From Escherichia phage vB_EcoM_Lh1B: a stretch of 64,000 nucleotides of DNA. The stretch's first letter is position 1; each line of letters begins with the position of its first letter. The DNA is taken from sequence record OK428535.1. One strand, given 5' to 3'. The translations under genes were made by a program, and so were the position numbers. The notes beneath the pieces were generated by a model. It was given only the letters and a program-made list of their open reading frames with translations. It made no database searches and was not told the origin of the DNA. This document shows, piece after piece, positions 3,840 through 58,893 of this stretch.

Positions 3840-3870
3840 TTTCAGATATATATTACCTAGGTGATAGAAG
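3840..3870 (+). promoter_or_regulatory. early-promoter-like element, copy A (TTTCAGATATATATTACCTAGGTGA)
   Basis: Near-identical copies at 32872 and 52662; contains TATATTAC; lies about 45 nt upstream of an ATG. Confidence 0.5.
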
Positions 3871-6030: not shown

Positions 6031-6175
6031 CACTAACCNNNNNATGAAATAACTTTACCCGAGTGCTGGAAGCACTCGGGTAATTCCATGCATATAAATA
6101 GTTCGTCGTATTTTTTTTTGATCTCGGCAAGACGCATAAACTGCCCGTAGGGGAGCCTAAGCTCCCCAGTGCTCG

Positions 6176-7738
6176 TTAGAACAAATCATCACCCATTCCA
6201 CCGGTGAAGAAGTTGATAGACGACGCTGTTACGGTTTCTTCTTTATCACAATCCCAAGGCAGGATGCCAACATCCTGGAAAGGTATCACTGTGTAGTGAT
6301 AAGATTCTTTAGTATCGATAATGGTGCGGTGTTTACCGCGTTGAACTTCTAAGAAGCTATGGCCGTTGACCACACGCTTGTTAAAATACATTTCACCATC
6401 GGCCTCGTTATCAAGGCTCGAACAACTATCGTAAAGACCACGACCAGGTAAGTTCTTACAGAAGCCTACCGGGTCTAACGCTTTTAAGCGTTTACCTTCT
6501 GGGGAAATCTGGTGTGGGGCAATTAAGAACCCACGGTTGCGTACCACTTGGATGTTACGAGCAATACGATAAATTTCTTTGATATCACTCCCGGCAATGC
6601 CGTTGCCGTGTCCTGCTTTGCTGATTGTGCCTAAGTAGTCTGCGCGAATGCCAACAACATGATAACCGCGACGACGTAAGTCGAGAATAAGGTCGTTGAT
6701 GTAGTGCACTTTAAAATCGGAGTTGGTGTGCTTTTGGAAAACGTAGTCCCAACCGTTTGCGCGAATCTTACCACAGAGGTAATCAGACATTGCTGTTGTG
6801 TGTGCTAACTTCTCTTCAGCGGTTGCATCCTGTGCAATGGTCATCTGTGGAACTTGTCCTTCAAAATGACCGTACAGTGCTTGATAGCCGTAAGCTAAGT
6901 TAACGTCGAGTTCGTTTTCTAAACTCAAGTCAAGAATAATTGGTTGCAGTGTGCCCTTCACATCCGCCATTATTTTCTCAGGCGTGTTGAAGATAGGAAT
7001 CGACAAGCTCAGTAAGAGACTGAACAAAGACTTACAGTTAAAAGGCAACGCCGGCATAAGCCACAGTTCTTCGGTAATCCCTTTGTTACAACCGAGCATT
7101 TGGTTAATGGCTTTCCAGCCCGTCTGCAAACCATTACCTGCTGCTTTCTTGTTAATCGAGTCGAACACTTTAACAAACGGAGCCCGATTATCTGTAACCA
7201 GCTCACCGACCAGTGATGGAATCTTATTATGAGAGCGTTCACCGAACGTAGATAGCGCCTCTTTGAGTTCGAGCACTGCGGTGTTCAGATCAACACGTGT
7301 CTCAGTTCCATTCAATGCTCCGAACGCGCGACCCATTTTTGTTTTGAGTTCGACGCTCTGTAAACATTGACGTAATTGGAAATAATATTGAGACAGTTGT
7401 CGATTAAGATGCTCGGTACGTTTGTCTTCTTCCTCGGGCAAATCGTCTTCGAGGAATTTGGTAATCGTATCGTATAGAGGACGTACTTGAGTGGTGGCCA
7501 GCTTCAAGCGCTTCATAACGCTCGCGTGGTCGTATTCCATGCCGCCGTCTATGATAGATGTGATAATGTCCTTGATCTCGATGAGTGCAAAGCGCTCTTC
7601 GCCATCTTCCGCATATTCCGGAAGCTTGATCTGCATCAGAACTTTTCTTATGACATCATGATCCTTGCTAGGGTCCGTCAGCATAGATTCTGTATACAGT
7701 GCGGCTAAGGCGGTTATCAACATCATTTTACTATTCAT
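6176..7738 (-). CDS. hypothetical protein (520 aa), minus strand
   Basis: 1.5-kb ORF unlikely by chance; AAGGA RBS on the minus strand; hydrophobic N-terminus. Confidence 0.6.
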   Translation of the reverse strand: MNSKMMLITALAALYTESMLTDPSKDHDVIRKVLMQIKLPEYAEDGEERFALIEIKDIITSIIDGGMEYDHASVMKRLKLATTQVRPLYDTITKFLEDDLPEEEDKRTEHLNRQLSQYYFQLRQCLQSVELKTKMGRAFGALNGTETRVDLNTAVLELKEALSTFGERSHNKIPSLVGELVTDNRAPFVKVFDSINKKAAGNGLQTGWKAINQMLGCNKGITEELWLMPALPFNCKSLFSLLLSLSIPIFNTPEKIMADVKGTLQPIILDLSLENELDVNLAYGYQALYGHFEGQVPQMTIAQDATAEEKLAHTTAMSDYLCGKIRANGWDYVFQKHTNSDFKVHYINDLILDLRRRGYHVVGIRADYLGTISKAGHGNGIAGSDIKEIYRIARNIQVVRNRGFLIAPHQISPEGKRLKALDPVGFCKNLPGRGLYDSCSSLDNEADGEMYFNKRVVNGHSFLEVQRGKHRTIIDTKESYHYTVIPFQDVGILPWDCDKEETVTASSINFFTGGMGDDLF

Positions 7739-7752
7739 GGAGCATCCTTAAA

Positions 7753-8277
7753 ATGCAAATTCGTTTTAGTCCACCGTGGGAAGTTCAATCTAACATAGAT
7801 AAAGGGGCTGGCGTTAAAAAGTTGGAGGAACTCCAAGCAAGCTTCTTTAACTGGTTATATGACTGCTCGTCGGGCTTTAGTTCCATCATACTGCCAGTGA
7901 GTGACCCTATTTCGATTTATAAATCGATTATGGCACCACCTGCACTTCCGACTCTTTATTATGACCAGGTCTTAAACCTGGTTGAGAAAGGTACGAATGA
8001 AACCCTTGCTGATTTATATGGGGAATCATTCGACGGTCGTTTACGTTGGGTGTTCTCACAANGTGGCGATGTTGTTGTGGCGTCTTTTGCAGAAGCTAAA
8101 TCCGGNCNGGNTTTTTNTTTAAGTGAAGACCACGNTGCGAAAAAGATGTTCTGCGCAGAACTTTTTAAATATATGCGTCCCAAGACTCGTGTCGTGGATG
8201 ATACGTTCAGTACGTCGACGCAGTTTGCTGCGCACGAAGTGCTGACGCAGTTGTACGCATGTCATTTATCTAAATAA
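7753..8277 (+). CDS. hypothetical protein (174 aa)
   Basis: GGAG RBS 9 nt upstream of ATG 7753; contains Ns near 8062-8134. Confidence 0.5.
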   Translation: MQIRFSPPWEVQSNIDKGAGVKKLEELQASFFNWLYDCSSGFSSIILPVSDPISIYKSIMAPPALPTLYYDQVLNLVEKGTNETLADLYGESFDGRLRWVFSQXGDVVVASFAEAKSXXXFXLSEDHXAKKMFCAELFKYMRPKTRVVDDTFSTSTQFAAHEVLTQLYACHLSK

Positions 8278-8289
8278 GGTAAACTTGAA

Positions 8290-10590
8290 ATGAAAGATAC
8301 CCGTATCGCTAGTCTGGACCAGCTGGTTCAGCAGGGCAATGCTCTGGTCGCTGCTGCCAAGGCAGGCTCTTCCGCTAATGACGTATGGCNNNCCGTNGCC
8401 NTTGTCGCCTCTNTACNTNAAAATGCTGCCGGCTTCACCAACCTGCGTGACACTGCTCAGCAGCACTACGAAGCTGTAAACCCTGGCAAAACCATGAGCC
8501 ACGCTGCCCAGGTTGCTTCTGCGATGATTCTGGCTGCTGCCGGTCACGAAGACGACTTCATGACCCGTGTTGCTGCCGAGAGCGCGAAGCCGGAATACGC
8601 CAGCTATATGCCGATCGCTATTTCTGGTGCAGCATCTCTGGCTGCTGACTACGGTAAAACTCCGCTGGTCGCAACCGAATACTACACCAACAAAGACCTG
8701 GACAAAAACCTGGGTCTGACCTGGACGCTGAACGTGCGTGCTCTGGAAACTCAATCCAAGTTTGCAGAAACCCTGTTCCCGACCATCACTGTGGACACCA
8801 ACGACGTCGGCATCACCGTTCGTACCAAAGTTACTACTGTAACTCGTGGTATCCTGAACGCCCTGCTGACCAAAGACGTGGTTGAAGACAACCGTCAGCC
8901 GCTGCATAACGCGCTGTCTAACCACAAAGTCCTGCAGGACGATGCTATCCGTATCGTACCTTACGTGATGGAAACCGGTGAGAACGCGAAGTTCTTCGTA
9001 TCCGAAGACATCATCGAAAACGAAAACGTTCAGCTGGGTCGTGTGCCGGCGTATCCGACCAACTACCTGNGCTTCTCTGAGCGTCGTCTGAACCTGTTCC
9101 AGCTGTCTGCCCATCCGGGTATCGTGCAGGAAGGTTACGATGAAACCGACGAAATCGCACCGGGTGCAGCGCTGGGNAGCCTGCTGCTGTCTGTGCGTAA
9201 GCCGACCGAAGAAGCGAAAGATGGCGCGCTGATCAAACTGAACGTACGCGACATGCAGTTCGCTACCTTCCAGCGTCCTCCTGAAGGCGATGGCCGTGAG
9301 CTGGTCCTGCAGTTCCGTCGCACTGTGTTCTCCCTGAACGCCAAGTCTCTGGACTGGAAAGGTGCTGAAATCCCGGCACTGGCCGCTCTGGCACAGAACG
9401 ATTACACCATTCGTTATTCCATGAACATCAGCATGTCTCTGTTCACCAACGGTCAGTTCTCTGGTCGTGTTGACGTGACTGCACCGTCTCTGGAAATCGA
9501 AGGTCTGTACGATGCAACTGGTACTGCTGTTGATATCGAAAGCGGCACCGGCAAAGTCATCATCGACAACCTGAAACTGGAGCTGCTGGGCTGGCGCTTC
9601 GACGGTACTCGTACCAACGAGAACCGGAGAACCCAGGGCCTTCTGCTCGACCCGATTTGGGAACAAGAGAACTACAAACTGCAGTACGGTTCTCCGATCA
9701 TGACCAAATCTCCGGTTGGCGTTGAATACGACGACACCGAACGTCTGGACGACCTCGTTTCTGCGGTTAACATCCGTAACGAAATGCTGGCTATCACTCA
9801 GACTCTGTCTTACACCGAAGCGGTTAAGAACGCAGCTGCGTCCATGATCACTCCGTGGGACAAACCTGCTATCCGCGGCCTGGGCCGTCACTGGGTTGCT
9901 CCGTGGTACAGCGAAAGCGACTACGAAGTGGACAAAGTGATCCAGTCTCTGGATACCAAAGATGCGCTCATCAACGCCCGTCAGGGTCTGGTACAGCGTA
10001 TCGGCGACCAGGTAACTCGTGCTATCCAGGATTCTCGTTTCATGCCGGCTCTGCGCCTGCTGACTGCGGACCCGAACGCACTGCCGAAAGTTGTTATCGC
10101 AACTGACGAACCGACTGCTGCAATGCTGCTGCTGGTTCAGGGTGACCAGCGTCTGCTGGGCGATCGCTACGAGTACGAAGTTATCACCACCAACGATGAC
10201 CGCTGGCGTGTGAAGAACGAAGCTGACGGCAGCTGGACTCGCCGCCTGCAGTGGGTTCTGAAAGTTCCAACCGCTGATGACGGTTCTTACTGTGTTCTGA
10301 ACTGGGGTAACCACTTCTGGTCTCCGATCATGGTAACCAACATCAACATCCAGCGTAACGGCGCTACCAGCAAAGAGCTGGCAGTACAGCCTCGTAACGC
10401 GCACATCTGCCACTGCCCGATCACTGGTCTGATCTGGATTAAAGGTATCACCAAGTTCGTGGAAGAGAAACTGGCGTTCAACGTCACTACTACTTCCAAC
10501 GGTACTGGCGGTACTAATGGCGGTAATGCGGGTGATGTTGGCGGCGGCGCTACCCAGCCAGGGACGGGNGGTGATGGCGCTGGCGGCTAA
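8290..10590 (+). CDS. putative major capsid protein (766 aa), highly expressed structural protein
   Basis: Very strong optimal-codon bias leaving a 715-aa antisense shadow ORF; size fits the ~750-aa capsid proteins of phiKZ-like phages; product call from context only. Confidence 0.45.
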   Translation: MKDTRIASLDQLVQQGNALVAAAKAGSSANDVWXXXAXVASXXXNAAGFTNLRDTAQQHYEAVNPGKTMSHAAQVASAMILAAAGHEDDFMTRVAAESAKPEYASYMPIAISGAASLAADYGKTPLVATEYYTNKDLDKNLGLTWTLNVRALETQSKFAETLFPTITVDTNDVGITVRTKVTTVTRGILNALLTKDVVEDNRQPLHNALSNHKVLQDDAIRIVPYVMETGENAKFFVSEDIIENENVQLGRVPAYPTNYLXFSERRLNLFQLSAHPGIVQEGYDETDEIAPGAALXSLLLSVRKPTEEAKDGALIKLNVRDMQFATFQRPPEGDGRELVLQFRRTVFSLNAKSLDWKGAEIPALAALAQNDYTIRYSMNISMSLFTNGQFSGRVDVTAPSLEIEGLYDATGTAVDIESGTGKVIIDNLKLELLGWRFDGTRTNENRRTQGLLLDPIWEQENYKLQYGSPIMTKSPVGVEYDDTERLDDLVSAVNIRNEMLAITQTLSYTEAVKNAAASMITPWDKPAIRGLGRHWVAPWYSESDYEVDKVIQSLDTKDALINARQGLVQRIGDQVTRAIQDSRFMPALRLLTADPNALPKVVIATDEPTAAMLLLVQGDQRLLGDRYEYEVITTNDDRWRVKNEADGSWTRRLQWVLKVPTADDGSYCVLNWGNHFWSPIMVTNINIQRNGATSKELAVQPRNAHICHCPITGLIWIKGITKFVEEKLAFNVTTTSNGTGGTNGGNAGDVGGGATQPGTXGDGAGG

Positions 10591-10621
10591 TAATCCGTAA
10601 GGATTACGTTGCCTAAGATTA

Positions 10622-10662
10622 GCTTACTCCCTTNGGGGNGNNAGNTTTTTNNTTTTTTNTNA
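10622..10662 (+). terminator. probable terminator after the capsid gene (N-containing)
   Basis: CTTACTCCCTT...GGGG...AG stem followed by long T-run; Ns obscure detail. Confidence 0.4.
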
Positions 10663-10673
10663 AAATTTNTANN

Positions 10674-10694
10674 TAGATATTATCTTAGGGAGAG
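10674..10694 (+). promoter_or_regulatory. promoter-like palindromic element, copy H (TAGATATTATCTTAGGGAG)
   Basis: Member of the AGATA-N-TATCT-TAGGGA family seen eight times. Confidence 0.4.
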
Positions 10695-10866
10695 AGTCGT
10701 TCGGTTTTAACTTAAGGAGACAGTAATGGTAATCAATTTAGAGAGATCAAGACTAGTTGCACCGATGTTTGATGGGCGCGGTTTTATGGCGAACGGTCCC
10801 AACGTCTAATACCCTAAAGTTTTTTACGTTAAGGGCACTGGGTATGAACCCGTGCCCAAAGTAATC

Positions 10867-10889
10867 TGAGATAGATATTATCTACGTGA
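10867..10889 (+). promoter_or_regulatory. promoter-like palindromic element, copy G (GAGATAGATATTATCTACGTGAA)
   Basis: Same motif family; upstream of gene 10899. Confidence 0.4.
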
Positions 10890-10898
10890 ATAATTCTT

Positions 10899-11927
10899 TT
10901 GGTATTATTACTGGGATGTTCAATGAACCGTTATGATTTAGACGTTCAGCCAACGCTAACCCAGCGGCCCATGCACCGTGGTGCCGTGTCGAAGACTATC
11001 ACGTACGAAAATAATACCGGGTTTCCCATATNCNNNACNGAACTCAGTGGCGGGCATTTTGTTTTAGCCCCGTCGTCCACCACAGCGGCGGAATTTGGGN
11101 TTGTGATTTACGTGACCTATACGGTGTTTGCGAACGGTGCTAACCTATCTGGTTTGCGCGACGCACATTCGCCAAAGCAGTATGCGCAGATATGTAAGGA
11201 ATTAACTACGAACGGCGAAACAACGCTGATGTATGTAGTTGATGATATCGGTGCATTAATGCGAGGCGACTTGGTGGTGTTGAAGAAGCTAGGAATGGCT
11301 TTCTCTACTCAACCAGTAAAACTCGATTCTGAGGTTATTGGTAAGCCGGGAGGGGATCGTAAAGAATTTGCCTTGGGCGTGGTAGTTGTACAGAAGTACG
11401 AAGACCCAGCACCTTTAAAGTGGCTGAGGTTCTATACAACGATGTTGGAAGTCGAACCGATTCGATCGAAGTATTACGACGAGGGTATTTACATGGTAAT
11501 CGGTGGTGCGGAGTGCGTCGAAGGGGGTAAGATGATAATGTACTCTTTCGATGACCCGATGTCCCCGTTCCGGGCGTTTGCATCTGAAGATGAAGCGAGG
11601 CGTTATCGGTGGCTCGATAACATTCCAGAGTTGCGANNTGTTCGTGCGAAGCTGGAAGCCACGTATCAGGCCAAGTTGCAAGATCTCGATGAGAAAAAGA
11701 ATCGGCAAGACCTCGATTATCGTACACAACTTAATAATCTGGCGCTAGAGAAGGAGAGGATTAACACCCTTAACACAATCCAGACGAATGAGCTTAAGTT
11801 GCGTTCCGATGTTCGTAAAGACCAATACGAGTCCCGAGCTTATCAGCGAAAAGATAGCTCGGAGTTCTTGAAATCCATTCCCGCGTATTTGGCTGCAGGG
11901 GTAGCACTCGTTGGGATGATTCTCTGA
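10899..11927 (+). CDS. hypothetical protein (342 aa) with coiled-coil and C-terminal transmembrane segment
   Basis: Long ORF; start ambiguous (an in-frame ATG at about 10923 is an alternative). Confidence 0.55.
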   Translation: MVLLLGCSMNRYDLDVQPTLTQRPMHRGAVSKTITYENNTGFPIXXXELSGGHFVLAPSSTTAAEFGXVIYVTYTVFANGANLSGLRDAHSPKQYAQICKELTTNGETTLMYVVDDIGALMRGDLVVLKKLGMAFSTQPVKLDSEVIGKPGGDRKEFALGVVVVQKYEDPAPLKWLRFYTTMLEVEPIRSKYYDEGIYMVIGGAECVEGGKMIMYSFDDPMSPFRAFASEDEARRYRWLDNIPELRXVRAKLEATYQAKLQDLDEKKNRQDLDYRTQLNNLALEKERINTLNTIQTNELKLRSDVRKDQYESRAYQRKDSSEFLKSIPAYLAAGVALVGMIL

Positions 11928-11938
11928 GGGAGGCCGGT

Positions 11939-13717
11939 ATGTTTAAAGATGCGATTAGGAAGATTAAAGAGGCAGGCGAAATAGTGCCTTTTAATCGTGC
12001 AATTGCAGAAGGAGTTGGGTACACACAAGCTAAAGACGGGATACATGATCGTGTGGCAACCATTCTACGTCGTGAGTTGACGTATGATGAAATCGATAAC
12101 CCGAAATTACCAGAAGGGTTAACGGTGTTAGGCTGCCGTCAGATGTCCCCGTTTGAAGCTTTTATCTTTAAGTTATCGAAGTCGGATAACAATTCACGAA
12201 ACAATCGTGGCCGGTCAATTATTAACATCTCATCCACTGACACGTATATGGTAATGGCCTCGTTCCGAGTTCCAGGCGATCCTCGCCCGGTGCAACGACC
12301 AATGAGCCTGCCGTTTATTCGTCGTGGCGGCTTAATGAACTACTACGGTACAACGTACCACGTAGCACCTGTAATCCACCAACCTGGTATTTGTCGTGAG
12401 CACGGTGGTATCTTTATTAACTTTGACTTCACCCGCAAGGTGTCTATCAAGTTCTGTAAGAAACCAACGAAGATTCTGGTGAATGGTCGCCCTGAGCAGC
12501 TGTTCTTGCCAGGTACATCGAATCTGTTTGTCTCAACTGGACAGATTGGACACGACACCGATGAGAAACCACTGATGTATTGGCTCTTTGGGCGCTACGG
12601 CTTTAAACAAGCTGTGAAGCGTTATGCGGGCGTTGATGTGACGATTTGGCCAGCGATTAAAGTACGTGATGTGGACTTAACGAAGTATGTGGTGATTCAG
12701 TCCGGTGAGCCACAACTCGCGAAGACCATCCAGTACGTACTGTTGGTTAAACGTGAAGATATGCCTAACACCGATGCAGGGCGTTGGGATCAAAACGAAC
12801 ATCTGTTGCTGGTAGCGACTGCCGCATTCTTCAAAGCGGCGCACTATTACGCAGGTAAACAGAACAGTAAGAACGGTCGTGCACCAACACTGCCGGGGCT
12901 GTTTACACAGATTAACGAAATGGCAATGGACGAAGATATTGCGAACCTCAATTCTGCAGCCTCCTGGCGCGAAGTGTTGGGTCGTAGTATTCGCGGACTG
13001 AAGCCTTCGGATATCGAACTGAGTCGCAGTATGGACAGCCACTTCCAGGAATGTGAACGCTATGTCAACAGCACCTTCCGTGGTGAGCTGATGGCAAACG
13101 ATCCGTCCATCCCTGATGATTTGGATATGTTTGATTTCCTCTGGTACACCACGCAGCTGATGGTGCGTACTCGTCTTACCAAACAAGATGATATTCCGTC
13201 TATGTACGGAAAACGTCTCACGGTAACCGATTACTTACTGTTGGGCCAACGTGGCTTTACCACAACGATCTCGAAAATACGTTGGAAGCTGGGGCAGTTG
13301 GAACATCGGACTCCAGAGACAGCGGCGAAGTCTATTCGAGACGCACTGAACAAACAGATCGTGCTCAATCTGGTGATGCGCACCATTACGAGCAACGGCG
13401 GTATCAGTTTCTTCAATGCCTCTACAGAATCAATGGTATTGGCAGTGTCTACGCACGCCATCGGTCAAACCGAAACCGATGCTAAGCGTTCGAAGAAAGG
13501 AGGCAAGACCGTTAACTTGAACGACCGTACTAAGCACGCATCTGCGTCGCATCTGGAATGTGGTAACGTCTACTATATTCCTAAGTCGGCACCGTTTAAG
13601 GCGAACATCCTCAACCCGTACATGAAGACCAACCCAAGTTTGGTAATGATGCGGAATCCTAAACTGGACCCGTACATCAGACCGACCGAAGAAGACATTG
13701 CTAAAATCGGCCGCTAA
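11939..13717 (+). CDS. hypothetical protein (592 aa)
   Basis: GGGAGG RBS upstream; long ORF. Confidence 0.65.
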   Translation: MFKDAIRKIKEAGEIVPFNRAIAEGVGYTQAKDGIHDRVATILRRELTYDEIDNPKLPEGLTVLGCRQMSPFEAFIFKLSKSDNNSRNNRGRSIINISSTDTYMVMASFRVPGDPRPVQRPMSLPFIRRGGLMNYYGTTYHVAPVIHQPGICREHGGIFINFDFTRKVSIKFCKKPTKILVNGRPEQLFLPGTSNLFVSTGQIGHDTDEKPLMYWLFGRYGFKQAVKRYAGVDVTIWPAIKVRDVDLTKYVVIQSGEPQLAKTIQYVLLVKREDMPNTDAGRWDQNEHLLLVATAAFFKAAHYYAGKQNSKNGRAPTLPGLFTQINEMAMDEDIANLNSAASWREVLGRSIRGLKPSDIELSRSMDSHFQECERYVNSTFRGELMANDPSIPDDLDMFDFLWYTTQLMVRTRLTKQDDIPSMYGKRLTVTDYLLLGQRGFTTTISKIRWKLGQLEHRTPETAAKSIRDALNKQIVLNLVMRTITSNGGISFFNASTESMVLAVSTHAIGQTETDAKRSKKGGKTVNLNDRTKHASASHLECGNVYYIPKSAPFKANILNPYMKTNPSLVMMRNPKLDPYIRPTEEDIAKIGR

Positions 13718-13748
13718 TTATTACATCTCTTAAGGAGTATTATTTACA

Positions 13749-15419
13749 ATGAGCATTACTGTTGAACAAATCAAAAACGTCATCGTTAAACACCTCGATC
13801 AGGACGCGGTACTGTCGCAGTTGAATAACGTGATGCGTAGTCGTAGCATTCCGCCAGATCAGGCGTTAAAGATTGCGACGTATGTTGCGGCATGGGCAGC
13901 ATCCAAAGGGGGTAGTGAAGCACAGGTTATCGCATATGCAGTCGATGCGTATAAAGCAGCTGCCTATCAGCAGGTGCATAACGCAGGCGACGCGTATANN
14001 GACGATCGTCACACCAAACTGGTTAATGCTTGGGAACAAGTCGGTAAGATTCTTGCCGAAATTCGTTCTCAGCAGTCCGGCGGTTTGGGTGGCAGTGGTG
14101 GTTTAGGTGGTGGTAGCAACGCAGGCGGGTTACTGGGCGGTAACAGTTCTGGCGGTGTGCGTGTTACTGATGGCTTGACCATGNCTTCTGCGCCATCCGG
14201 TGGTGTTAAGATTGGTAACACGGATGCGGCACTAACCGTGATTGCTGGCGGCGCAGGTCTTAACCTGGTCAGTGATCCTATTCTGAACCCACAGCCAGCG
14301 CAAGTAGCCCCAGCACAACAGCCCCAGCCTGAACCAGCACCGGTGCCTGTACAACCAATGCCGGTGTCTAATGCTACAGTTAATAACCCAGTGCTTTCCC
14401 CACTCGGCGCAACAGAAGAAACCGAGAAGGACACTACCAATGGCCCAATTAACAACATTCTGCAGGAGATTGATTTGATGGAAGACTACGCACTTCACGA
14501 GCTNAAAACCCCCGAGCTTAAAATGTCNATTCCAGCGAAGGAAGCTAACAGTCGCATTAAGCAATCTGTTTACGCGGAAACGCGTGATTGGGCTACACCG
14601 TTGCAAGATATCTTTAACGGTAATGAAGAGGTTGTTTTCTACGACGGGGCTGACCTGATTGTGCGTGCACGGGATAGTTATCGCGCGTATCTGGTTGGTG
14701 TTAACACTGATATGTGCGAACGCATGAAGCAATTTGTTGCTAAGCACGACGCACTGAAATCCGATCTCGACAGCCTGGCGTTGGTAGAAGATGTTGAAAC
14801 TATCATGGCTAAGGTGAAACGTACGATCGATGAGCTGCGTAAGAACACGAAAGAACTGCACGATTATGCGATTGCGAACAGCAGCGAAGCAGAAGTGGTT
14901 ATCAGTGAAATTTCTCGCTTTGCTAATGCGTACCTGGCGAATATCACTTTCCTGGTACACAACGCGCTGTCGCTGGGCACTAAGCGTGGTAAAGATGTGC
15001 CGAAGTTCAAAGCCATCGATTTCGAACGGAAAATCAGCGATATTGATTTCTTCGTAAAAGATCTGTTCACTGCAACCGCTGGCGACAACGGCGTAAGTGA
15101 ATATGAAGACTGGTTCCGTGACCTGTTCCTGATGGTGGCGAACTCTCTGCGCAAACTGACTATCAAGCTGAGCGATTCTGGCAAGGTGGTTAATCTGATT
15201 CAGAGCCAGTTCACCATCGTGATTCCGGGCATGTACCATTCTGTTGATAAACACGACGTAGTTACGGTAGCGTCTCTGGGCAATACCGCAGACCCGGTTG
15301 TGTCTATCTACGAAGCAGTACAGGAAAACGTGCCACATGCAATTGTATTGATGCAGCTGCCGCAGCACACTTACTTGCTTCTGAGCAATGGTGAGAAAAC
15401 TGCACCAGTGTTGTACTAA
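13749..15419 (+). CDS. hypothetical protein (556 aa) with Gly-rich and Pro/Gln-rich linker
   Basis: AAGGAG RBS; the 378-aa antisense ORF is treated as a shadow. Confidence 0.65.
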   Translation: MSITVEQIKNVIVKHLDQDAVLSQLNNVMRSRSIPPDQALKIATYVAAWAASKGGSEAQVIAYAVDAYKAAAYQQVHNAGDAYXDDRHTKLVNAWEQVGKILAEIRSQQSGGLGGSGGLGGGSNAGGLLGGNSSGGVRVTDGLTMXSAPSGGVKIGNTDAALTVIAGGAGLNLVSDPILNPQPAQVAPAQQPQPEPAPVPVQPMPVSNATVNNPVLSPLGATEETEKDTTNGPINNILQEIDLMEDYALHEXKTPELKMXIPAKEANSRIKQSVYAETRDWATPLQDIFNGNEEVVFYDGADLIVRARDSYRAYLVGVNTDMCERMKQFVAKHDALKSDLDSLALVEDVETIMAKVKRTIDELRKNTKELHDYAIANSSEAEVVISEISRFANAYLANITFLVHNALSLGTKRGKDVPKFKAIDFERKISDIDFFVKDLFTATAGDNGVSEYEDWFRDLFLMVANSLRKLTIKLSDSGKVVNLIQSQFTIVIPGMYHSVDKHDVVTVASLGNTADPVVSIYEAVQENVPHAIVLMQLPQHTYLLLSNGEKTAPVLY

Positions 15420-15426
15420 GTAATAC

Positions 15427-15460
15427 GGAGACCTTCGGGTCTCCTATTATTATTTTTTAT
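15427..15460 (+). terminator. rho-independent terminator (UUCG loop)
   Basis: GGAGACC-TTCG-GGTCTCC followed by T-rich run. Confidence 0.7.
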
Positions 15461-15484
15461 TCTATCGTGAAAAGGAGTATTAAA

Positions 15485-15751
15485 ATGTCTAGTGTTGAAG
15501 CAGTAATCTATTTTGAAAACGATGGGGTCGCGGGGTGCGGCTTCCCGAAGACAGCTGGGGTTAAATTTCTGTTGGCAAAGTATAAAGAAGAGCTTAAGAA
15601 AACGGCAGGGCAGAACCCTGGCGTGCCACTGCGTAGTGTTTTTCCTGAGATGGAGAAGGCTGCAAAAGTTGATCCGGTGTTGGGTATGTTCTGCGGGATG
15701 ATCAAAGAGCGATTTCCTGACATTGATAAGTACCACATTACGCTGGCGTAA
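15485..15751 (+). CDS. hypothetical protein (88 aa)
   Basis: AAGGAG RBS upstream of ATG 15485. Confidence 0.5.
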   Translation: MSSVEAVIYFENDGVAGCGFPKTAGVKFLLAKYKEELKKTAGQNPGVPLRSVFPEMEKAAKVDPVLGMFCGMIKERFPDIDKYHITLA

Positions 15752-15785
15752 TTATTATAGAGTAGCTCTATAATGAGGTTCGAGC

Positions 15786-16088
15786 ATGGTAAAGTTCATT
15801 GTTGTCAACATGGATTTTGAGCGTNGTGTGNGTTTTNNCTTTGAGTTACCTGAAAACAAAGNGNCTGAATATTTATTACCCGGCTTCCAAAAATCCAAAA
15901 CAGCGATTAGACATGGACGTCGCCGGCAAATCTTCTACAACGCCCGTAAAGGCCTCCTGAAGGCGTTAAAAGCAGCAAAGGATACAAAGGTATTGGAAAA
16001 GCTAGAACCTTTCCAGAACGACCCTNTGGCGATTGGTATCATGCTCGACGAACTGGTTAATAAACCCAAAGCTGCTGCAGAAGATTAA
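15786..16088 (+). CDS. hypothetical basic protein (100 aa)
   Basis: ORF with Ns near the 5' end; Lys-rich C-terminus. Confidence 0.45.
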   Translation: MVKFIVVNMDFERXVXFXFELPENKXXEYLLPGFQKSKTAIRHGRRRQIFYNARKGLLKALKAAKDTKVLEKLEPFQNDPXAIGIMLDELVNKPKAAAED

Positions 16089-16098
16089 AAAAAGAAAA

Positions 16099-16150
16099 GG
16101 TACCTCTCCCCGAAGGGAGAGGTAAACCTTATTTCTTTTTCTTTTTTTTT
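16099..16150. terminator. bidirectional terminator between convergent genes
   Basis: ACCTCTCCC-CGAA-GGGAGAGGT flanked by an A-run upstream and T-run downstream. Confidence 0.65.
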
Positions 16151-18895
16151 TTAGAGGACGTTGTCTGGGTTNTCGTNGNTAGTTNNTTCACCACCTTCTG
16201 TGCCTTCCNTTCCCTCGGTAGTTNTTTCCGTGGTTTCGGTCGACTCAGTAGTTTCCTCTGTACTATCACCACCGGTGCCGTTATCCGTATCGAGATCGAG
16301 GTCTAAATCATCGTCACCCCCACCGCCGAGATCCCCATCGCCACCACCAGTGTCACCGCCCGCATCAAAACCACCACCGAATCCGCCGGAAGCATCATTA
16401 GGATCAAGGTCGGCATTCTTCGCTAACGTTTCCAGTCGCCCGGTGAAACGTTTCGCCAATTGAATCAGCGTTTTCGAAGCAGCCATCGCTTCATCAGTCA
16501 TCATGGTGATGTTGTCCTGACGAGAATCATCGTCGTAAACCAGATCGAAGAAGTCGGTTTCAATACCTTGTTTACGCAGCCAGTTGCGCGTATAGAAGGA
16601 CTTGATCATCGTCTTCAGATCGTTCGGGTCCATCGAGATGCCTTCTTGCTGGAGTTGCGCAGCAATGTCATCCGTTACAACCAGATCAGCCAGCTTCTCA
16701 AAGAACTCCGTACGTTTATCGAACAGCTCCATCTGCGAAGCTGCTGCCGATGTGTCGGGTGGTGGTAAGGTTACTTTCATACCGTTGATAAACGCAGCCA
16801 GATACTCAGAGACCTTTTTCGTAATCTGGTCAGTAGTCATCCCATTGCCGTTAGCATTGATGTACTCTGCAATGATTTTAATCATCGCTGATTGCAACGA
16901 CGGAGAGGCCAACATCCCATTAACTACGTAACGTGTCAGTGGCTTAGAGAGAATCTCTTGCTTCTTAACAACCTGCTGGGTGACCAGTAACGATTTAGAG
17001 AAGATCTGTGAAGCAAACTCGATGTTCTCGGGGGTCATTACCAGGTCAGGGTCAACACCTGCGATGTGACAAGTGCGACGTAACAGACCTTCGTCGAAAT
17101 CCTTATCCGGGTATTTATAATCCGGCGTAGTGTCCGACACAGACACTTTGGTACTACCGTAGTAGTCGTTACCAATAACGTTAAACGCAATACCTGCGTT
17201 TGTCGTCATTGCCCAGGTGTCGTTCATGTCCCCCCACATCGGTTGACGACGGTTATAGGAGTTCATGATGTCTGTTTTCAGCTGGTCAATTGTTTTCTGA
17301 CCGTTCATGTCATCTGGTGCCAACTCAATGTCGTACTGCATGTGACGTGCAGAGTTTAACACCGCAGAGTTCATGGTAGCGAACAACAGCGCCATACGGA
17401 CAGTAGAGATAACGAACGAGCGTTCGGTAATAGATACACCGATACCATCTTCATCAAAGTCCGTGGCAAAATAGCAAAGGTTTTCCGCAGGAATATAAAT
17501 AACCTGCGTATGGCGTTTTGCCAGATGGCGCGCCAGCATGATACGGCTGAACGTTTCGGTTACTGTCATGCTAATCTCAGCACCACCCAACGCCTCACCC
17601 AACGCTTTTGTCAGCTGGTCTTCAGCAATCTCACCATAACGCGCTGTTAAGCGGTTAGCAATGTCTGGTGTGATTCGGGTTGTGTTGCCCATCCCCAGAT
17701 TCGCGCGGTTGATTGTCGAATCTACCATACCGTCGTTGTTCAGGTAGTTCATGAAGTTCGCATCCCCGTAAAGTGTGGAACGCGAGTTAATGAAGTTACC
17801 CATTTCGTCAACGATGGCCAGATAACCTATGGGGTTACGAACATCGTCACCGATAACGAGTGGGAGTGTGGACTCTGCTGGCAGTAATCGTTCCGTGTAT
17901 TCGATTTTGTTGGCATCGGAGAAACTCATCTTCGGTACTTCGCCGTAAAGCTTTTGCTCAGGCGTTTTCTGGTACGCTTCGTTGAGGTCGCCGATGTTGA
18001 TTAAACCGAGTTTTGCCTTCTCTTGTTCGCTGTCTGTGAACTGGTCAGCGTTATACTCTGACGCACCTGTCGGCGTAGAAGGTTGTTCATATGCGTACTG
18101 CTCTAACTGACCGAACAGGCCGGTGCGAGCATTCTCCTGTGCCACACGGCGATAAGCCTCTGGTAGCAGGGTAATACGCGGGTTGTCGGTGATAACGATA
18201 TCCAGGGAAGCTAACATACCGTCTGCTTTAAACGGACTGTTAGGGGCTGATGCAAAGTTAAGTTTAATGGTTTGTGGCTTGGTGGGCTTGTCAGCGCCAC
18301 GTGCACGACCCAGAATACTTTCTACGCCAACCTTCGGTTTGTTTTCACCGCCAATCTTGCCCAGGATACCCAACTGACGTTCAAAGAAGTCAGATTGGCT
18401 ACGGCGCAACGATTCGGTTGCAACAGACGGCTTTAAGCCGAAGAGTTCATCGAATCCGGTATCTGAAATCAGCAACACCGGGCTCGCGCCTTTGGATTTC
18501 AGTGCATCGTAAATCCACTGATACAGTTTGTTGGGTAACTGGCGCGTGTGGTCATGGAATTCACGCACAGGTTCCAATAACTGCTGACGCAGGTCGATCG
18601 GGATATCAGCCACGTTGTCGTAAATCAGCGTGGTGTTAATCAAATCTTTTGTGGACAGGAGCGAGGAGGTCGCGATGGTAACAATGACCTCTAACTCAGG
18701 GAGCGCATCAAAGATACGTTCGGCATTTTTAACGGTGCGAATGCGGCTACTCGCAATGCCCGTGAGTTCTGTACGGGTTGGTGTAACGCCGCCATCTTCA
18801 CGCTTACCGCGTTGCTGCTGAGCCGACGGGCTCGTGGACTTACGCAGTATGGCAGCTACCGCGGGGTCGCCCGTTAATTTACTAATATCTTCCAT
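16151..18895 (-). CDS. large hypothetical protein (914 aa) with acidic Gly/Asp-rich C-terminal tail; possible portal
   Basis: 2.7-kb minus-strand ORF; GGAG RBS on minus strand; five genes away from putative capsid gene; portal call is speculative. Confidence 0.35.
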   Translation of the reverse strand: MEDISKLTGDPAVAAILRKSTSPSAQQQRGKREDGGVTPTRTELTGIASSRIRTVKNAERIFDALPELEVIVTIATSSLLSTKDLINTTLIYDNVADIPIDLRQQLLEPVREFHDHTRQLPNKLYQWIYDALKSKGASPVLLISDTGFDELFGLKPSVATESLRRSQSDFFERQLGILGKIGGENKPKVGVESILGRARGADKPTKPQTIKLNFASAPNSPFKADGMLASLDIVITDNPRITLLPEAYRRVAQENARTGLFGQLEQYAYEQPSTPTGASEYNADQFTDSEQEKAKLGLINIGDLNEAYQKTPEQKLYGEVPKMSFSDANKIEYTERLLPAESTLPLVIGDDVRNPIGYLAIVDEMGNFINSRSTLYGDANFMNYLNNDGMVDSTINRANLGMGNTTRITPDIANRLTARYGEIAEDQLTKALGEALGGAEISMTVTETFSRIMLARHLAKRHTQVIYIPAENLCYFATDFDEDGIGVSITERSFVISTVRMALLFATMNSAVLNSARHMQYDIELAPDDMNGQKTIDQLKTDIMNSYNRRQPMWGDMNDTWAMTTNAGIAFNVIGNDYYGSTKVSVSDTTPDYKYPDKDFDEGLLRRTCHIAGVDPDLVMTPENIEFASQIFSKSLLVTQQVVKKQEILSKPLTRYVVNGMLASPSLQSAMIKIIAEYINANGNGMTTDQITKKVSEYLAAFINGMKVTLPPPDTSAAASQMELFDKRTEFFEKLADLVVTDDIAAQLQQEGISMDPNDLKTMIKSFYTRNWLRKQGIETDFFDLVYDDDSRQDNITMMTDEAMAASKTLIQLAKRFTGRLETLAKNADLDPNDASGGFGGGFDAGGDTGGGDGDLGGGGDDDLDLDLDTDNGTGGDSTEETTESTETTEXTTEGXEGTEGGEXTXXXNPDNVL

Positions 18896-18906
18896 TGGGG
18901 TCTCCG

Positions 18907-21090
18907 ATGCAGAGATTTAACATTTTTCGTGACCAGGCTATCCAGTTAGCGAAATCCCTGATTGTCAAATCAGAGAGCATCGCACAACAGATGAACCTGG
19001 CAATAACCAAAAACGGCGGTTTCGTTTCCGAGAACCGTGAGACGTGGCGGTATTACCTACACTTAGCAGGTAAACGACATGCAATCGACAAGCCGATATA
19101 CATTACGTCACTCGACACGCAAGAGCAGATAGAGTTAACGACGCAGAACCTCTCCCGTCATAAAAAGACCTCAAACGTATATCGTTCTAACCCGGAGTAT
19201 ATCGACGACTTAATCGCCGAGTATCCGGACTACGCAGTATACATTCGCGGTACTTTCAATCCGATTGATATTGCATACGCGATACGTGTCGATGACTGCT
19301 CAATTTTGTATTACGATCCTGCTTTAGTTGAACCGCAGGAGACGTCGTTAATTACACATATTGAGAACTTTATTCGTGCAGCACATGTGCGTTTCATGGC
19401 TGATGGCTGGAAAGTTCACAACGACTGTTTCGTACTGGCCTTTTACATGCAGCAGTACCCGGTGTGGCCGGGGCTTATCATGTACATCCGCAAACGGTTA
19501 CAGTTTACGACCGAAACGCACTCCTACTACGTGACCGAGTTCTTGGCTTCGCACCAAGAACTGCACGAGTTCATGCCGTACCTGACCCTCAAGCAGAAAT
19601 TCACACTGTATCGCAATATCCGTTACTGGGAACGTAACTCTGGTAAGGAAGAAATCTTTACCTGGATGATTGACACCCTGCTGACGGGTTGGGGTATGCC
19701 TGCTGTTGGATATAAGGTCGCCCAGCAGATTCACGACCCGACGACGGGCAGTGACGATGACCTGACACCACTCCCGATCGGCTACCAGTCATCGCTTAAC
19801 TATACTGAACGTGACTCGGGCCGTGACCTGGACATTGTTAGCACAACTGACATCATCCAGAAAGAAATCAATCTGGCGTACAATAACCCAGTGCACGAAC
19901 CTGACTATCAGGAAGACCTCGATCGGCGTTTGAGCTTGACGCAGTATCCGAACCTGCCAACGAAGTTAGTTGAGGTAACGGCGATTGACCCAGAGGCCAT
20001 CGAACGTTGGGAATTTATGCATGGCTTGTTCAACGAGTGGATGCATATCGTGGCACGTGGACAGTACAACATTTACCACGAAATTCTTAACCCAACGAAC
20101 GGGGATACGCTAAAGCTCACTTCAAAAGAGCTGCTGGCACTGTTCTTGTATGCGAGCTTCAAAGGTTATTCGGGTGTAGCACTGGATAAAATCCCGGTGT
20201 GGAACGTGTTTGGTGTGCTAATCAAACGCTGGGTTGGTTTTGATGAGATGGAGCAGCATCTGCCAAGCTCATGGCCCGGCCGTTTTAATGCGTTGATTAA
20301 CTATTACACGGACACGCATCATGAAGTTATCGGTAATTTGATGTCTGCAGATGAGTTGTACGATGAAATCAGCGAAATCATGGTGCAGAAGCGTCGTCGT
20401 TACCGTTACTCGTATAATCGACACAAGCTAGCCGACCGTGCTGCTGGCACAATGCTGTTTACCTACCATTACCGTGACTATAAGTGCGATCTTGACCTAC
20501 CTTACCGCGATTACGACGAGTTCTTCAAAACGTTTGGTTTTGATTACGAGTTAGTCTCCGCGGAAACCTGGCAGGACATCGCCACCGACGCTTTAAACGT
20601 GGCCACTAATCTGGAAACACGTGCGTCTGTCTCACAAGCTGAAATACAACGCGCGATGGTGCGGTTAATGACGAAACTCTCGTCGTATACTGTCCATTTT
20701 GCCGCACGTATGGGTTCTGACACCTACGATGTCACCGACCCAGTCATCCCGATTCTGGATGATATTCTCGCAGAGGCTGCCGATACAACAAATATCATTT
20801 ACCCTCTGACAGACGTGCAGCGTGTGAGCCGTAGTTCATTCATGACGACGGATAAGCCCATCCCTGTCGCTCCCGTGATAAAGGAAATGGCAATCCCGCA
20901 ACGTATTAAGTTGCGGATGAATGTCTACCCTGGTATCCGCGTGAAGGTCGAGCAGGATGTTGTGATCGATATGGTACAGCCACCTATTGATGTTATCCGT
21001 GTGCGGACGTCATTTGAGGAGTGGACGCTTGCCGAGCGCGTGGCCGACCGTGACATGGATGGCTTCCGGCTAGACCAATTACCAAAGTGA
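18907..21090 (+). CDS. hypothetical protein (727 aa)
   Basis: Long ORF; first ATG at 18907 (ORF track begins at a TTG at 18895). Confidence 0.6.
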   Translation: MQRFNIFRDQAIQLAKSLIVKSESIAQQMNLAITKNGGFVSENRETWRYYLHLAGKRHAIDKPIYITSLDTQEQIELTTQNLSRHKKTSNVYRSNPEYIDDLIAEYPDYAVYIRGTFNPIDIAYAIRVDDCSILYYDPALVEPQETSLITHIENFIRAAHVRFMADGWKVHNDCFVLAFYMQQYPVWPGLIMYIRKRLQFTTETHSYYVTEFLASHQELHEFMPYLTLKQKFTLYRNIRYWERNSGKEEIFTWMIDTLLTGWGMPAVGYKVAQQIHDPTTGSDDDLTPLPIGYQSSLNYTERDSGRDLDIVSTTDIIQKEINLAYNNPVHEPDYQEDLDRRLSLTQYPNLPTKLVEVTAIDPEAIERWEFMHGLFNEWMHIVARGQYNIYHEILNPTNGDTLKLTSKELLALFLYASFKGYSGVALDKIPVWNVFGVLIKRWVGFDEMEQHLPSSWPGRFNALINYYTDTHHEVIGNLMSADELYDEISEIMVQKRRRYRYSYNRHKLADRAAGTMLFTYHYRDYKCDLDLPYRDYDEFFKTFGFDYELVSAETWQDIATDALNVATNLETRASVSQAEIQRAMVRLMTKLSSYTVHFAARMGSDTYDVTDPVIPILDDILAEAADTTNIIYPLTDVQRVSRSSFMTTDKPIPVAPVIKEMAIPQRIKLRMNVYPGIRVKVEQDVVIDMVQPPIDVIRVRTSFEEWTLAERVADRDMDGFRLDQLPK

Positions 21091-28670: not shown

Positions 28671-29131
28671 TGAAGATTATTACCATAGTGGGGCCAGACA
28701 CGGCTAACGGCAGGAAATATTCCACAGATATCCTCGCGCTTTATAACGAGCTGGACAAAAGCGAAATAGAAAGCTATCGAAAAGAGACGGGTATTAATGT
28801 CCGTTTTACGCCGGCTAAATCGTTAGCCGAGCGCTTCCGGGGTCGTTTACTGGCGGTCGTGGACGACGGTGTCTTGTATGGCTTTGCGCAATACCGCACG
28901 ATGACTGAAGAGGGTGTGACGATGATGTCGGTATCCTCACTGGTCGTTAGCAGCAGCGCACGTGGTAAAGGTTACGGCACCGCGTTGATGGATGCGGTAA
29001 AGAAATCCGCAACGGAAAAAGGGTGTACAGTTGTTCACCTGTCCGTGAACGCCGGTAACGCTGCCGCGAAGTCGCTCTACGACAAAGCTGGCTTTAAGGT
29101 AGGTGCTTACCAGATGTATTGGAGGGTGTGA
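28670..29131 (+). CDS. GNAT-family N-acetyltransferase (tandem paralogue 1)
   Basis: SARGKGYGTALMDAV and SLYDKAGFKV motifs; ATG overlaps upstream stop (TGATG). Confidence 0.65.
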   Translation: MKIITIVGPDTANGRKYSTDILALYNELDKSEIESYRKETGINVRFTPAKSLAERFRGRLLAVVDDGVLYGFAQYRTMTEEGVTMMSVSSLVVSSSARGKGYGTALMDAVKKSATEKGCTVVHLSVNAGNAAAKSLYDKAGFKVGAYQMYWRV

Positions 29132-31137: not shown

Positions 31138-31175
31138 CCCACTCCTTCGGGAGTGGGTCGACTCTATTTTTTTTG
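31138..31175 (+). terminator. rho-independent terminator (UUCG loop)
   Basis: CCCACTCC-TTCG-GGAGTGGG followed by T8. Confidence 0.7.
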
Positions 31176-31197
31176 GATAGATGTTATCTTAGGGAGA
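31172..31197 (+). promoter_or_regulatory. promoter-like palindromic element, copy D (GGATAGATGTTATCTTAGGGAG)
   Basis: Same motif family; upstream of gene 31292. Confidence 0.45.
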
Positions 31198-32871: not shown

Positions 32872-32902
32872 TTTCAGATATATATTACTTAGGTGAGAGT
32901 TG
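32872..32902 (+). promoter_or_regulatory. early-promoter-like element, copy B
   Basis: TTTCAGATATATATTACTTAGGTGA plus conserved leader into the RBS. Confidence 0.5.
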
Positions 32903-33711: not shown

Positions 33712-34247
33712 CTAGTATAACCCTTAAGGAGTATATCATGGCGAAGGCCCCTAAAACTGTAGCAAAAGATTCAATGGCAAGCAACGCGATTAAAGCCACA
33801 AAAACGCGTACTACCGAATTTCCACGTTCACCTACCATTCCTAAACCGGATGTAATTGTACCAATCAGTGAACGTCTGAAAACGATTCACATCGAACGTG
33901 AATTTCCGATTGACCTTGGTCAGGAAATCGTTGCGGTTAATCTTGGTAGTGATGTCCGCTTTACTATCTACAAGGGATTAACTAGTGTAAACCTTAAGGA
34001 GTATATCATGGCGAAGGCCCCTAAAACTGTAGCAAAAGATTCAACGGCAAGCACCGCGACTAAATCTGCAAAAACGTCTACTACAGAATTTCCACGTTCA
34101 CCTACCATTCCCAAACCGGATGTAATTGTACCAATCAGTGAACGTCTGAAAACAATTCACATCGAGCGCGAATATCCGATTGACCTTGGTCAGGAAATCG
34201 TTGCGGTTAACCTTGGTAGCGACGTACGCTTTACCATCTATAAAGGC
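33708..34247 (+). repeat. tandem direct duplication, 2 x 270 bp
   Basis: Units 33708-33977 and 33978-34247 are near-identical, each including RBS, ATG and first 80 codons. Confidence 0.85.
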
Positions 34248-34664
34248 GCGCATCTGAACAACATGGTGCTAACCCGTGGTGATGAAGTTATCGGTCTGTC
34301 TCGTTACGACACGCAAATCGAAAACATCTATCCGGTGTTTGCAGTAGCGATGTTGCGTTTGTTCATGCAGGATAAAGCCGACCTTTGTGGTCAGCTTGCG
34401 GGTATGGCGGATCGTGTTGGTCATATTCTGCCGACGCTGGTGAAACTGTACCCAGTTACGATTGACGTGGCGTTTACTACTGTAGACAACAACCACGGTT
34501 ATATCGTGCTGACCAAAGACGGTAAAGTTATCGCTGGTAATCTGACTGATAACGAAGTGCAGAAGCATATGGACAAATTTGCGTTCATGGTGAATCGCTT
34601 GGCGCACGTCAGTGTCAAACATTCTGAAACTTGGACGACGCTTGTCTCCAAACCTGAACTGTAA
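33738..34664 (+). CDS. hypothetical protein with duplicated N-terminal 80-aa module (308 aa; alternatively 34008-34664)
   Basis: Copy 1 reads in frame through the duplicated RBS into copy 2. Confidence 0.5.
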   Translation: MAKAPKTVAKDSMASNAIKATKTRTTEFPRSPTIPKPDVIVPISERLKTIHIEREFPIDLGQEIVAVNLGSDVRFTIYKGLTSVNLKEYIMAKAPKTVAKDSTASTATKSAKTSTTEFPRSPTIPKPDVIVPISERLKTIHIEREYPIDLGQEIVAVNLGSDVRFTIYKGAHLNNMVLTRGDEVIGLSRYDTQIENIYPVFAVAMLRLFMQDKADLCGQLAGMADRVGHILPTLVKLYPVTIDVAFTTVDNNHGYIVLTKDGKVIAGNLTDNEVQKHMDKFAFMVNRLAHVSVKHSETWTTLVSKPEL

Positions 34665-39716: not shown

Positions 39717-39746
39717 CTTTTCAGATAGATGTTATTTTACTGAACC
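39717..39746 (+). promoter_or_regulatory. promoter-like element, copy E (TTTTCAGATAGATGTTATTTTACTGAACC)
   Basis: Same motif family; 26 nt upstream of gene 39772. Confidence 0.45.
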
Positions 39747-42002: not shown

Positions 42003-42229
42003 TGGAAAACCTCACGCCGGTTGAGATAGTGGCGCTATTCGATCGTTACGTATATGGACAAACGCAGGCAAAGAAAATGNTGGCGATTGCGCTACGTAAT
42101 CGATACCGTGCCAATAAACTTAACGTAGTGGACCGTATGTCGGTCCACAAACAGAACCTTTTAATAGAAGGTCCAACAGGCACGGGTAANNCNNAGTTGA
42201 TGCGTGAAGAAAAACAGAAACAAAAGTGA
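42002..42229 (+). CDS. HslU (ClpY) N-terminal fragment: AAA+ unfoldase N-domain truncated after Walker A
   Basis: LTPVEIVALFDRYVYGQTQAKK..AIALRNRYR...NLLIEGPTGTG matches the HslU N-terminus motif for motif; stop follows at 42227-42229. Confidence 0.6.
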   Translation: MENLTPVEIVALFDRYVYGQTQAKKMXAIALRNRYRANKLNVVDRMSVHKQNLLIEGPTGTGXXXLMREEKQKQK

Positions 42230-48120: not shown

Positions 48121-48146
48121 CAGATAGATGTTATCTCAGTGAACCT
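48118..48146 (+). promoter_or_regulatory. promoter-like element, copy F (TTTCAGATAGATGTTATCTCAGTGAACC)
   Basis: Same motif family; about 55 nt upstream of gene 48200. Confidence 0.45.
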
Positions 48147-51268: not shown

Positions 51269-51346
51269 ATTAGAGGTTGGCAGGCTGTTCGTTAATCCTT
51301 AAAAAACAACAGTTTCAAATTAGTTACGACCATAAGGAGTATTAAA

Positions 51347-52532: not shown

Positions 52533-52605
52533 AAGGCGTTGAAGGACACTCTACTCCACATCAACTAGGATGACGCTTATCCCAAGGGTAGCGAATAAAG
52601 CAGCA

Positions 52606-52661: not shown

Positions 52662-52692
52662 TTTCAGATATATATTACTTAGGTGAGAGTTA
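52662..52692 (+). promoter_or_regulatory. early-promoter-like element, copy C
   Basis: TTTCAGATATATATTACTTAGGTGA plus conserved leader into the RBS. Confidence 0.5.
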
Positions 52693-54441: not shown

Positions 54442-54451
54442 GAGGGTATAG

Positions 54452-55294: not shown

Positions 55295-55304
55295 GGATTT
55301 TGAC

Positions 55305-56150: not shown

Positions 56151-56171
56151 TCCTGAGTAAAGGAAGTAAGA

Positions 56172-57083: not shown

Positions 57084-57095
57084 TTAGGCCTCGCT

Positions 57096-58890: not shown

Positions 58891-58893
58891 TTG

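Follow-up and report, generated by a model that had tools for sequence, protein, structure and literature searches.

Predicted head-gene neighbourhood of an SPN3US-like, phiKZ-related jumbo phage in a 64-kb stretch of Escherichia phage vB_EcoM_Lh1B

The closest described systems for the DNA investigated in this study are found in the jumbo phages SPN3US, a Seoulvirus, and phiKZ. In SPN3US, gp75 has been identified as the major capsid protein by mass spectrometry and its cleavage at the motif ATE-130 has been demonstrated (PMC5694885), and the cleavage sites of this phage have been mapped by mass spectrometry (PMC5694885; PMC10052503). Proteomic studies regard its gp81 as the portal (PMC5694885; PMC10052503), and the protein is predicted, by an I-TASSER match, to adopt a fold resembling T4 gp20 (PMC5694885), while gp129 of phiKZ constitutes the dodecameric portal in a cryo-EM atlas of that phage (PMC13250141). 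Here we have analysed a stretch of 64,000 nucleotides from Escherichia phage vB_EcoM_Lh1B (OK428535.1), which we refer to as the window, with a focus on positions 8290-18895. This span had been flagged in an earlier note made from the sequence alone, which proposed from protein size, codon bias and synteny that it harbours the capsid and portal genes of a phiKZ-like jumbo phage.

Our analysis supports this proposal. We estimate a probability of about 97% that the flagged span, as judged by sequence comparison, corresponds to the neighbourhood of the head genes in a Seoulvirus, an enterobacterial jumbo myophage that is similar to SPN3US and related to phiKZ, with a genome of around 240 kb. The identification of capsid and portal is not contradicted by any of the evidence and it is already known, as the functions assigned here have all been described previously in the literature. 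It concerns two genes:

8290-10590, plus strand: gene of the major capsid protein, ortholog of SPN3US gp75 and homolog of phiKZ gp120 (766 aa, ATG start)
16151-18895, minus strand: gene of the portal protein, ortholog of SPN3US gp81 and homolog of phiKZ gp129 (914 aa, ATG start)

The assignment of the 766-residue protein as a phiKZ-like major capsid protein is borne out at several levels of comparison. Its residues 72-725 align over positions 2-634 of the 635 positions of the Pfam family PhiKZ_MCP (PF25620) with an E-value of 2.8e-225 and a score of 749.7 bits, compared to a cut-off of 27, and the protein matches PHROG 3231, 'major head protein', at an E-value of 8e-293. Four chains of solved jumbo-phage capsids in the PDB are found with E-values between 3e-50 and 5.5e-29, the latter belonging to the gp120 capsid chain of phiKZ (8y6v), and the identity to SPN3US gp75 amounts to 98%. 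The motif ATE-130 is intact, its flanking sequence is identical to that of gp75, and a mature 583-residue chain in the PDB aligns from residue 132 onward. By orthology with gp75, the protein would be made as an 84-kDa precursor, from which the prohead protease would take off a 130-residue N-terminal propeptide by cutting after ATE-130, and the mature protein would assemble, in about 1,560-1,615 copies, into a shell with T=27 symmetry. The last 35 residues of the protein (732-766, encoded at 10483-10587) form a low-complexity glycine-rich tail containing 15 Gly and 7 Thr, which lies outside the region that aligns with the solved capsid chains. An antisense open reading frame (ORF) of 715 aa (8266-10413, minus strand), which covers most of the capsid gene, has no PHROG match and is regarded as a shadow ORF brought about by the strongly biased codons on the sense strand.

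The 914-residue protein is closely related to portals of the same lineage. It matches the chain of PHIKZ129, present in 12 copies in the PDB entry 9xpe, at an E-value of 4.5e-48, with an alignment that consists of two stretches, residues 44-180 and 303-897, and thus reaches into the acidic C-terminal tail. A chain named 'Portal Protein gp36' is matched at 1.5e-26 and phrog_3004 in the PHROG collection, and 892 of the 914 residues (98%) are identical in SPN3US gp81, which shares the position and orientation of the gene. The AXE sites ATE-161 and AQE-254, both located within a long N-terminal propeptide, are intact. From orthology with SPN3US (PMC5694885; PMC10052503), up to 254 N-terminal residues would be removed at these sites as a propeptide, and 12 copies of the protein would form the channel for DNA entry and exit at the tail vertex. 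The acidic low-complexity tail described in the earlier note is indeed pronounced, with the last 90 residues (825-914) comprising 22 G, 16 D, 13 T and 9 E, or 25 acidic (D+E) compared to a single basic (K+R) residue. A similar tail composed of Gly, Asp, Thr and Glu is found in phiKZ gp129. It would form a disordered extension at the crown or barrel end that faces the capsid interior, and its conservation in gp129 suggests, as a matter of speculation, that it functions on the portal's interior side. With respect to its location, the gene resides on the minus strand as noted earlier, although five genes, gp76 to gp80, intervene, which makes it the sixth rather than the fifth gene downstream of the capsid gene.

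Several observations qualify, without contradicting, the assignment of the span as the capsid and portal region of a phiKZ-like phage. A Pfam search has not retrieved any family for the 914-residue protein, and most GenBank and RefSeq records label it merely as 'virion structural protein'. A few bases within both large ORFs are N and give rise to X residues in their translations. The promoter core TATATTAC, which the earlier note had invoked in favour of the lineage, has no exact match within 8290-18895, and no experimental promoter mapping for Seoulvirus was found in the searchable literature. The missing match to a Pfam portal family and the generic label in the records would equally suit a different virion structural protein, such as a component of the neck, the inner body or the ejection machinery. 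We consider this alternative highly improbable, since residues 303-897 align with PHIKZ129, whose 12 chains in 9xpe form the dodecameric portal of the phiKZ atlas (PMC13250141), since a second chain named as portal is also matched, and since the protein is 98% identical to SPN3US gp81, with its role as portal in proteomics and its predicted gp20-like fold (PMC5694885). In light of the absent Pfam family and the generic labels, the identification as a phiKZ-type portal is thus based on the structure solved for phiKZ and on the proteomics of SPN3US.

The relationship to Seoulvirus extends beyond the two proteins. In a DNA search with the 10.6-kb span, 72 phage records were matched, 24 of which cover at least 80% of its length, and the full-length matches listed show identities of 96-98.3% and belong to genomes that all measure 239-243 kb. 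Those of the records that were fetched carry the classification Seoulvirus SPN3US, and the entire window is collinear with SPN3US at about 61.5-125.7 kb. The match of both proteins to the capsid and portal of phiKZ and SPN3US, together with the size of these close relatives, supports the proposed phiKZ-like lineage, so that the comparisons suggested as checks in the earlier note came out in its favour. Homologs of phiKZ gp120, gp123, gp129 and gp128 are all located in the span or directly adjoining it, and this clustering provides independent support from synteny. The split multisubunit RNA polymerases that are a hallmark of the lineage are represented by the match of the gp77 ortholog to PHIKZ123, a subunit of the non-virion RNA polymerase (nvRNAP).

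The 64 kb of the window are in exact register with the related genome of Escherichia phage vB_EcoM_EC001 (EC001; MN445185.1; 240,200 bp), whose positions 64001-128000 align with positions 1-64000 of the window one by one without a single insertion or deletion (indel), so that the gene coordinates of both differ by an offset of exactly 64,000. The window contains 1,515 substitutions relative to EC001 (2.4%), 1,122 of which are transitions, and 259 Ns that are clustered in 222 runs. The substitutions exclude that the window is EC001 itself. In the genes checked (8290-21090), most of them fall on the third codon position, which indicates purifying selection on the reading frames of the span. It is implausible that a natural divergence of 2.4% over 64 kb would produce no indel at all. 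The sequence has the appearance of a reference-guided consensus, called with EC001 as the reference, which would represent a related isolate or a mixed population. True indels may be hidden by such calling, and the indel content of the window is thus not to be trusted. As the assembly is for the same reason, and in light of its Ns, not independent of that reference, it could also be argued that the window originates from a different large phage or a chimeric assembly, in which the phiKZ-like features would be incidental. The probability of this scenario appears negligible in view of the collinearity of all 64 kb with two independent Seoulvirus genomes, the dominance of transitions and third codon positions among the substitutions compared to EC001, and the joint presence of several hallmark genes of the lineage.

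The claim that the capsid gene is the most codon-optimised gene in the window is substantiated by two measures. When 73 ORFs that do not overlap and measure at least 90 aa are compared, its effective number of codons (ENC) of 33.5 is the lowest, with a next value of 40.7 and a median of 53.0. Similarly, its frequency of optimal codons (Fop) of 0.854, which was scored with the classical enterobacterial set of optimal codons, is the highest among 38 genes, with the next at 0.745 and most in the range of 0.45-0.65. Compared to the remaining genes, the preference is strong for, among others, Leu CTG (94% and 29%), Phe TTC (95% and 49%) and Gln CAG (94% and 60%). It includes optimal codons ending with A or T, such as CGT (72%), TCT (54%), GCT (43%), GTT (43%), ACT (42%), AAA (72%) and GAA (76%), and the non-optimal codons ACG, TCG, CCC, GGG and CGG, which end with G or C, are avoided. 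Since the GC content of the gene is the highest in the window (0.554 compared to about 0.48, with 0.62 at third codon positions), its codon usage could alternatively reflect a foreign origin or a local shift in GC instead of translational optimisation. This explanation appears very unlikely, as the preference tracks the enterobacterial optimal set and extends to codons ending with A or T, which argues for translational optimisation and against a GC shift alone, and as the gene belongs to the vertically inherited core with homologs in all phiKZ-like phages. The bias towards host-optimal codons fits the late protein that is made in the greatest abundance, and its extreme extent is consistent with the protein being the most abundant of the virion, a property for which the evidence comes from SPN3US gp75 only (PMC5694885).

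The second-highest codon optimisation in the window is found in the gene at 56172-57083 (Fop 0.745, ENC 40.7). It is part of a run of seven consecutive genes of similar size (265-303 aa; 53644-59721), which are annotated as virion structural proteins in SPN3US and which may constitute a family of paralogs.

The genes that are located between capsid and portal are not head genes. Together with the gene that follows the portal, they comprise:

10923-11927, plus strand: gp76 ortholog, conserved protein of unknown function (phrog_7286, E-value 1.3e-146; annotated in SPN3US and EC001)
11939-13717, plus strand: gp77 ortholog, N-terminal fragment of nvRNAP beta (PHIKZ123 in PDB 7ogp, E-value 3.1e-20; phrog_2943, 'polymerase')
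13749-15419, plus strand: gp78 ortholog (phrog_8185, E-value 2e-226)
15485-15751, plus strand: gp79 ortholog, small protein of unknown function (phrog_26703, E-value 2e-49; annotated in relatives)
15786-16088, plus strand: gp80 ortholog, small protein of unknown function (phrog_10389, E-value 2e-41)
18907-21090, plus strand: gp82 ortholog, baseplate-wedge protein and homolog of phiKZ gp128 (PHIKZ128 in PDB 9xqs, E-value 1.3e-84)
10726-10809, plus strand: 27-codon remnant of a 232-aa gene (phrog_15414; match to model positions 1-25 of 234, E-value 1.1e-6)

The ATG start of gp76 was adopted from relatives, in place of the TTG at 10899 where the mechanically defined ORF begins. In the literature, SPN3US gene 77 is described as coding for the nvRNAP beta N-terminal fragment, and gp78 is an essential non-virion protein for which a regulatory role has been proposed (both PMC5105663), while phiKZ gp128 is a baseplate wedge protein (PMC13250141). 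The Pfam search yielded no family for gp76, gp77, gp79, gp80 and gp82, and its match of gp78 to Rootletin remains below threshold (16.9 bits compared to a cut-off of 36) and was dismissed; sequence searches of gp76 and gp78 against the PDB found no match. An antisense ORF of 378 aa (14232-15368) has no match in PHROG and is likewise regarded as a shadow ORF.

The remnant upstream of gp76 is preceded by a strong ribosome-binding site (AAGGAG). At the same position, Proteus phage 7 contains the intact phrog_15414 gene, and in other relatives the flagged span has about 600 bp more. When compared to these sequences, a deletion of about 606 bp, common to SPN3US and EC001, has taken away the rest of the gene. 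In two divergent gene pairs, consisting of the portal (minus) and gp82 (plus) at 18895-18907 and of the helicase (minus) and gp74 (plus) at 7738-7753, the start codons are separated by only 11 and 14 nucleotides, respectively. With virtually no intergenic DNA in either pair, each promoter must thus reside within the coding sequence of the neighbour.

Transcription in this lineage is described by a published scheme, in which early promoters rich in AT, among them the ones that precede the nvRNAP genes, are used by a virion RNA polymerase that enters by injection, and where late structural genes are in turn transcribed by the nvRNAP from a TATG motif of minimal size (PMC7598289). The core TATATTAC occurs four times in the window, compared to 1.6 exact matches expected. 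Three of these matches (3849, 32881 and 52671) are embedded in an exact repeat of 25 nucleotides, for which no copies are expected by chance, and two related variants are found upstream of gp76:

3840-3864, 32872-32896 and 52662-52686, plus strand: three copies of the exact 25-nt early-promoter-like motif TTTCAGATATATATTACYTAGGTGA
10671-10683, plus strand: early-promoter-like variant AGATAGATATTAT (two bases N; aligned with EC001, SPN3US and Proteus phage 7)
10865-10888, plus strand: second early-promoter-like variant TCTGAGATAGATATTATCTACGTG, 35 nt upstream of gp76

Gaps between annotated genes of relatives harbour at least the first two copies of TTTCAGATATATATTACYTAGGTGA. Downstream of every copy there is a hairpin, with a stem that varies in sequence from copy to copy, and after it AATCGAC; with z-scores of -1.5, -1.8 and -6.0, the hairpins are individually weak in two of the three cases. 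The motif closely resembles the promoter consensus of phiKZ, 201phi2-1, OBP and N1M2 (PMC7058600; also compared with PMC7598289). In light of these properties, the sites are probable early promoters of the virion RNA polymerase with a structured 5' leader, and they would provide the conserved AT-rich motif ahead of early operons that is expected in this lineage. The fourth match of the core (63334) lacks the extended motif, is located inside a gene annotated in relatives and was set aside as a chance match. The core thus lends support to the lineage in the window, where it forms part of a motif of the phiKZ, OBP and 201phi2-1 type, though not in the flagged span, from which it is absent.

The variant TCTGAGATAGATATTATCTACGTG resembles the consensus of OBP, N1M2 and 201phi2-1 (PMC7058600). 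A shorter form, AGATAGATRTTAT, is found at 10869-10881, 39723-39735 and 48122-48134 and, with one mismatch, at 31175-31187, compared to 0.13 occurrences expected, and a further, partly N-masked copy of this family is located at 10671-10683. The copies at 10671 and 10869 flank the gene remnant upstream of gp76. AGATAGATRTTAT may represent a second class of promoter, and the motifs ahead of gp76-gp78 would fit a scheme in which the injected virion RNA polymerase transcribes the nvRNAP genes. Whether TTTCAGATATATATTACYTAGGTGA and AGATAGATRTTAT together define two classes of virion RNA polymerase promoters in Seoulviruses, with the variant class driving the nvRNAP operon gp76-gp78, is a tentative proposal to which we assign slightly less than even odds.

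Three hairpins appear to delimit transcription units in the span:

10621-10660, plus strand: intrinsic terminator after the capsid gene (11-bp stem, UUCG loop, followed by a T-run)
15427-15444, no strand assigned: terminator-like hairpin after gp78 (7-bp stem with 5 G-C pairs)
16101-16124, no strand assigned: perfect bidirectional terminator hairpin in the gap where gp80 and the portal gene converge (10-bp stem found on both strands)

Since several bases of the window are N in the first of these elements, it was read from EC001 and SPN3US. Its sequence is identical in these two phages and in Proteus phage 7, and the EC001 copy folds with an energy of -19.4 kcal/mol (z-score -5.6). The hairpin at 16101-16124 folds at -21.7 and -22.1 kcal/mol (z-scores -5.2 and -4.2). 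A scan of 8000-19200 for sigma-70 promoters found 6 sites, fewer than the 11.6 in shuffled sequence, and host-type promoters are thus unsupported, as expected for a phage with its own polymerases. Collectively, the capsid transcription unit would end at a strong terminator, the unit of gp76-gp78 would be located downstream of early-promoter-like motifs and the portal unit would converge on the bidirectional terminator.

Size, codon bias and synteny alone had thus sufficed to identify a phiKZ-like pair of capsid and portal genes correctly. The significance of this result extends little beyond correct annotation, as the genetics and proteomics of SPN3US and the cryo-EM atlas of phiKZ allow the individual genes of the region to be annotated. 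The portal, gp77 and gp82 can receive more precise names in database records, where gp77 is currently labelled as 'polymerase' in one case and as 'hypothetical protein' in others, and gp82 carries generic structural or hypothetical labels.

Among known systems, SPN3US is nearly identical in this region, with its head-gene neighbourhood matched at 97-98% identity. Its gp75 and gp81 are each 98% identical to their counterparts, the order and orientation of genes from the helicase to gp82 are alike, and the motifs ATE-130, ATE-161 and AQE-254 are shared, as is the scar of the deletion between capsid and gp76. In the two proteins, the differences are confined to point substitutions, a one-residue difference in the length of the portal tail and positions with N, and elsewhere they consist of small indels and replacements. 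The NNNNN of the window at 6039-6043 stands in place of about 250 bp in SPN3US, which contain a 147-nt gene in a second copy. Further differences to SPN3US are distributed over five intervals (28678-29129, 33738-34664, 42039-42195, 44116-45094 and 51269-52576) and include an extra GNAT acetyltransferase gene (about 450 bp), one gene extended to 308 aa by a duplicated stretch of about 270 bp, the loss of about 680 bp, a tail-fibre-like segment of divergent sequence and several indels. EC001 differs from the window by its 1,515 substitutions, with a further 259 positions being N, and the window thus represents a different isolate or population.

The relation to phiKZ is more distant. Its gp120, gp129, gp123 and gp128 are all homologous to proteins of similar size clustered in the window, and its portal chain of 896 aa, compared to 914 aa here, carries an acidic C-terminal tail rich in Gly and Asp as well. 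In contrast, the capsid protein shows only about 24% identity (PMC5105663), the propeptides of the two phages probably differ in length, and host and genus are distinct. The parallels extend to T4, where the N-terminal propeptide of gp23 is cut after a glutamate by the prohead protease, as proposed for the capsid protein described here, whose propeptide is twice as long (PMC5694885) and whose shell is of T=27 symmetry. Regions conserved with T4 gp20 are found in phiKZ gp129 (PMC13250141), and SPN3US gp81 is predicted to share its fold, although no sequence similarity between the T4 and SPN3US portals is detected by PSI-BLAST (PMC5694885). Unlike T4 gp20, the portal of SPN3US is itself processed (PMC5694885).

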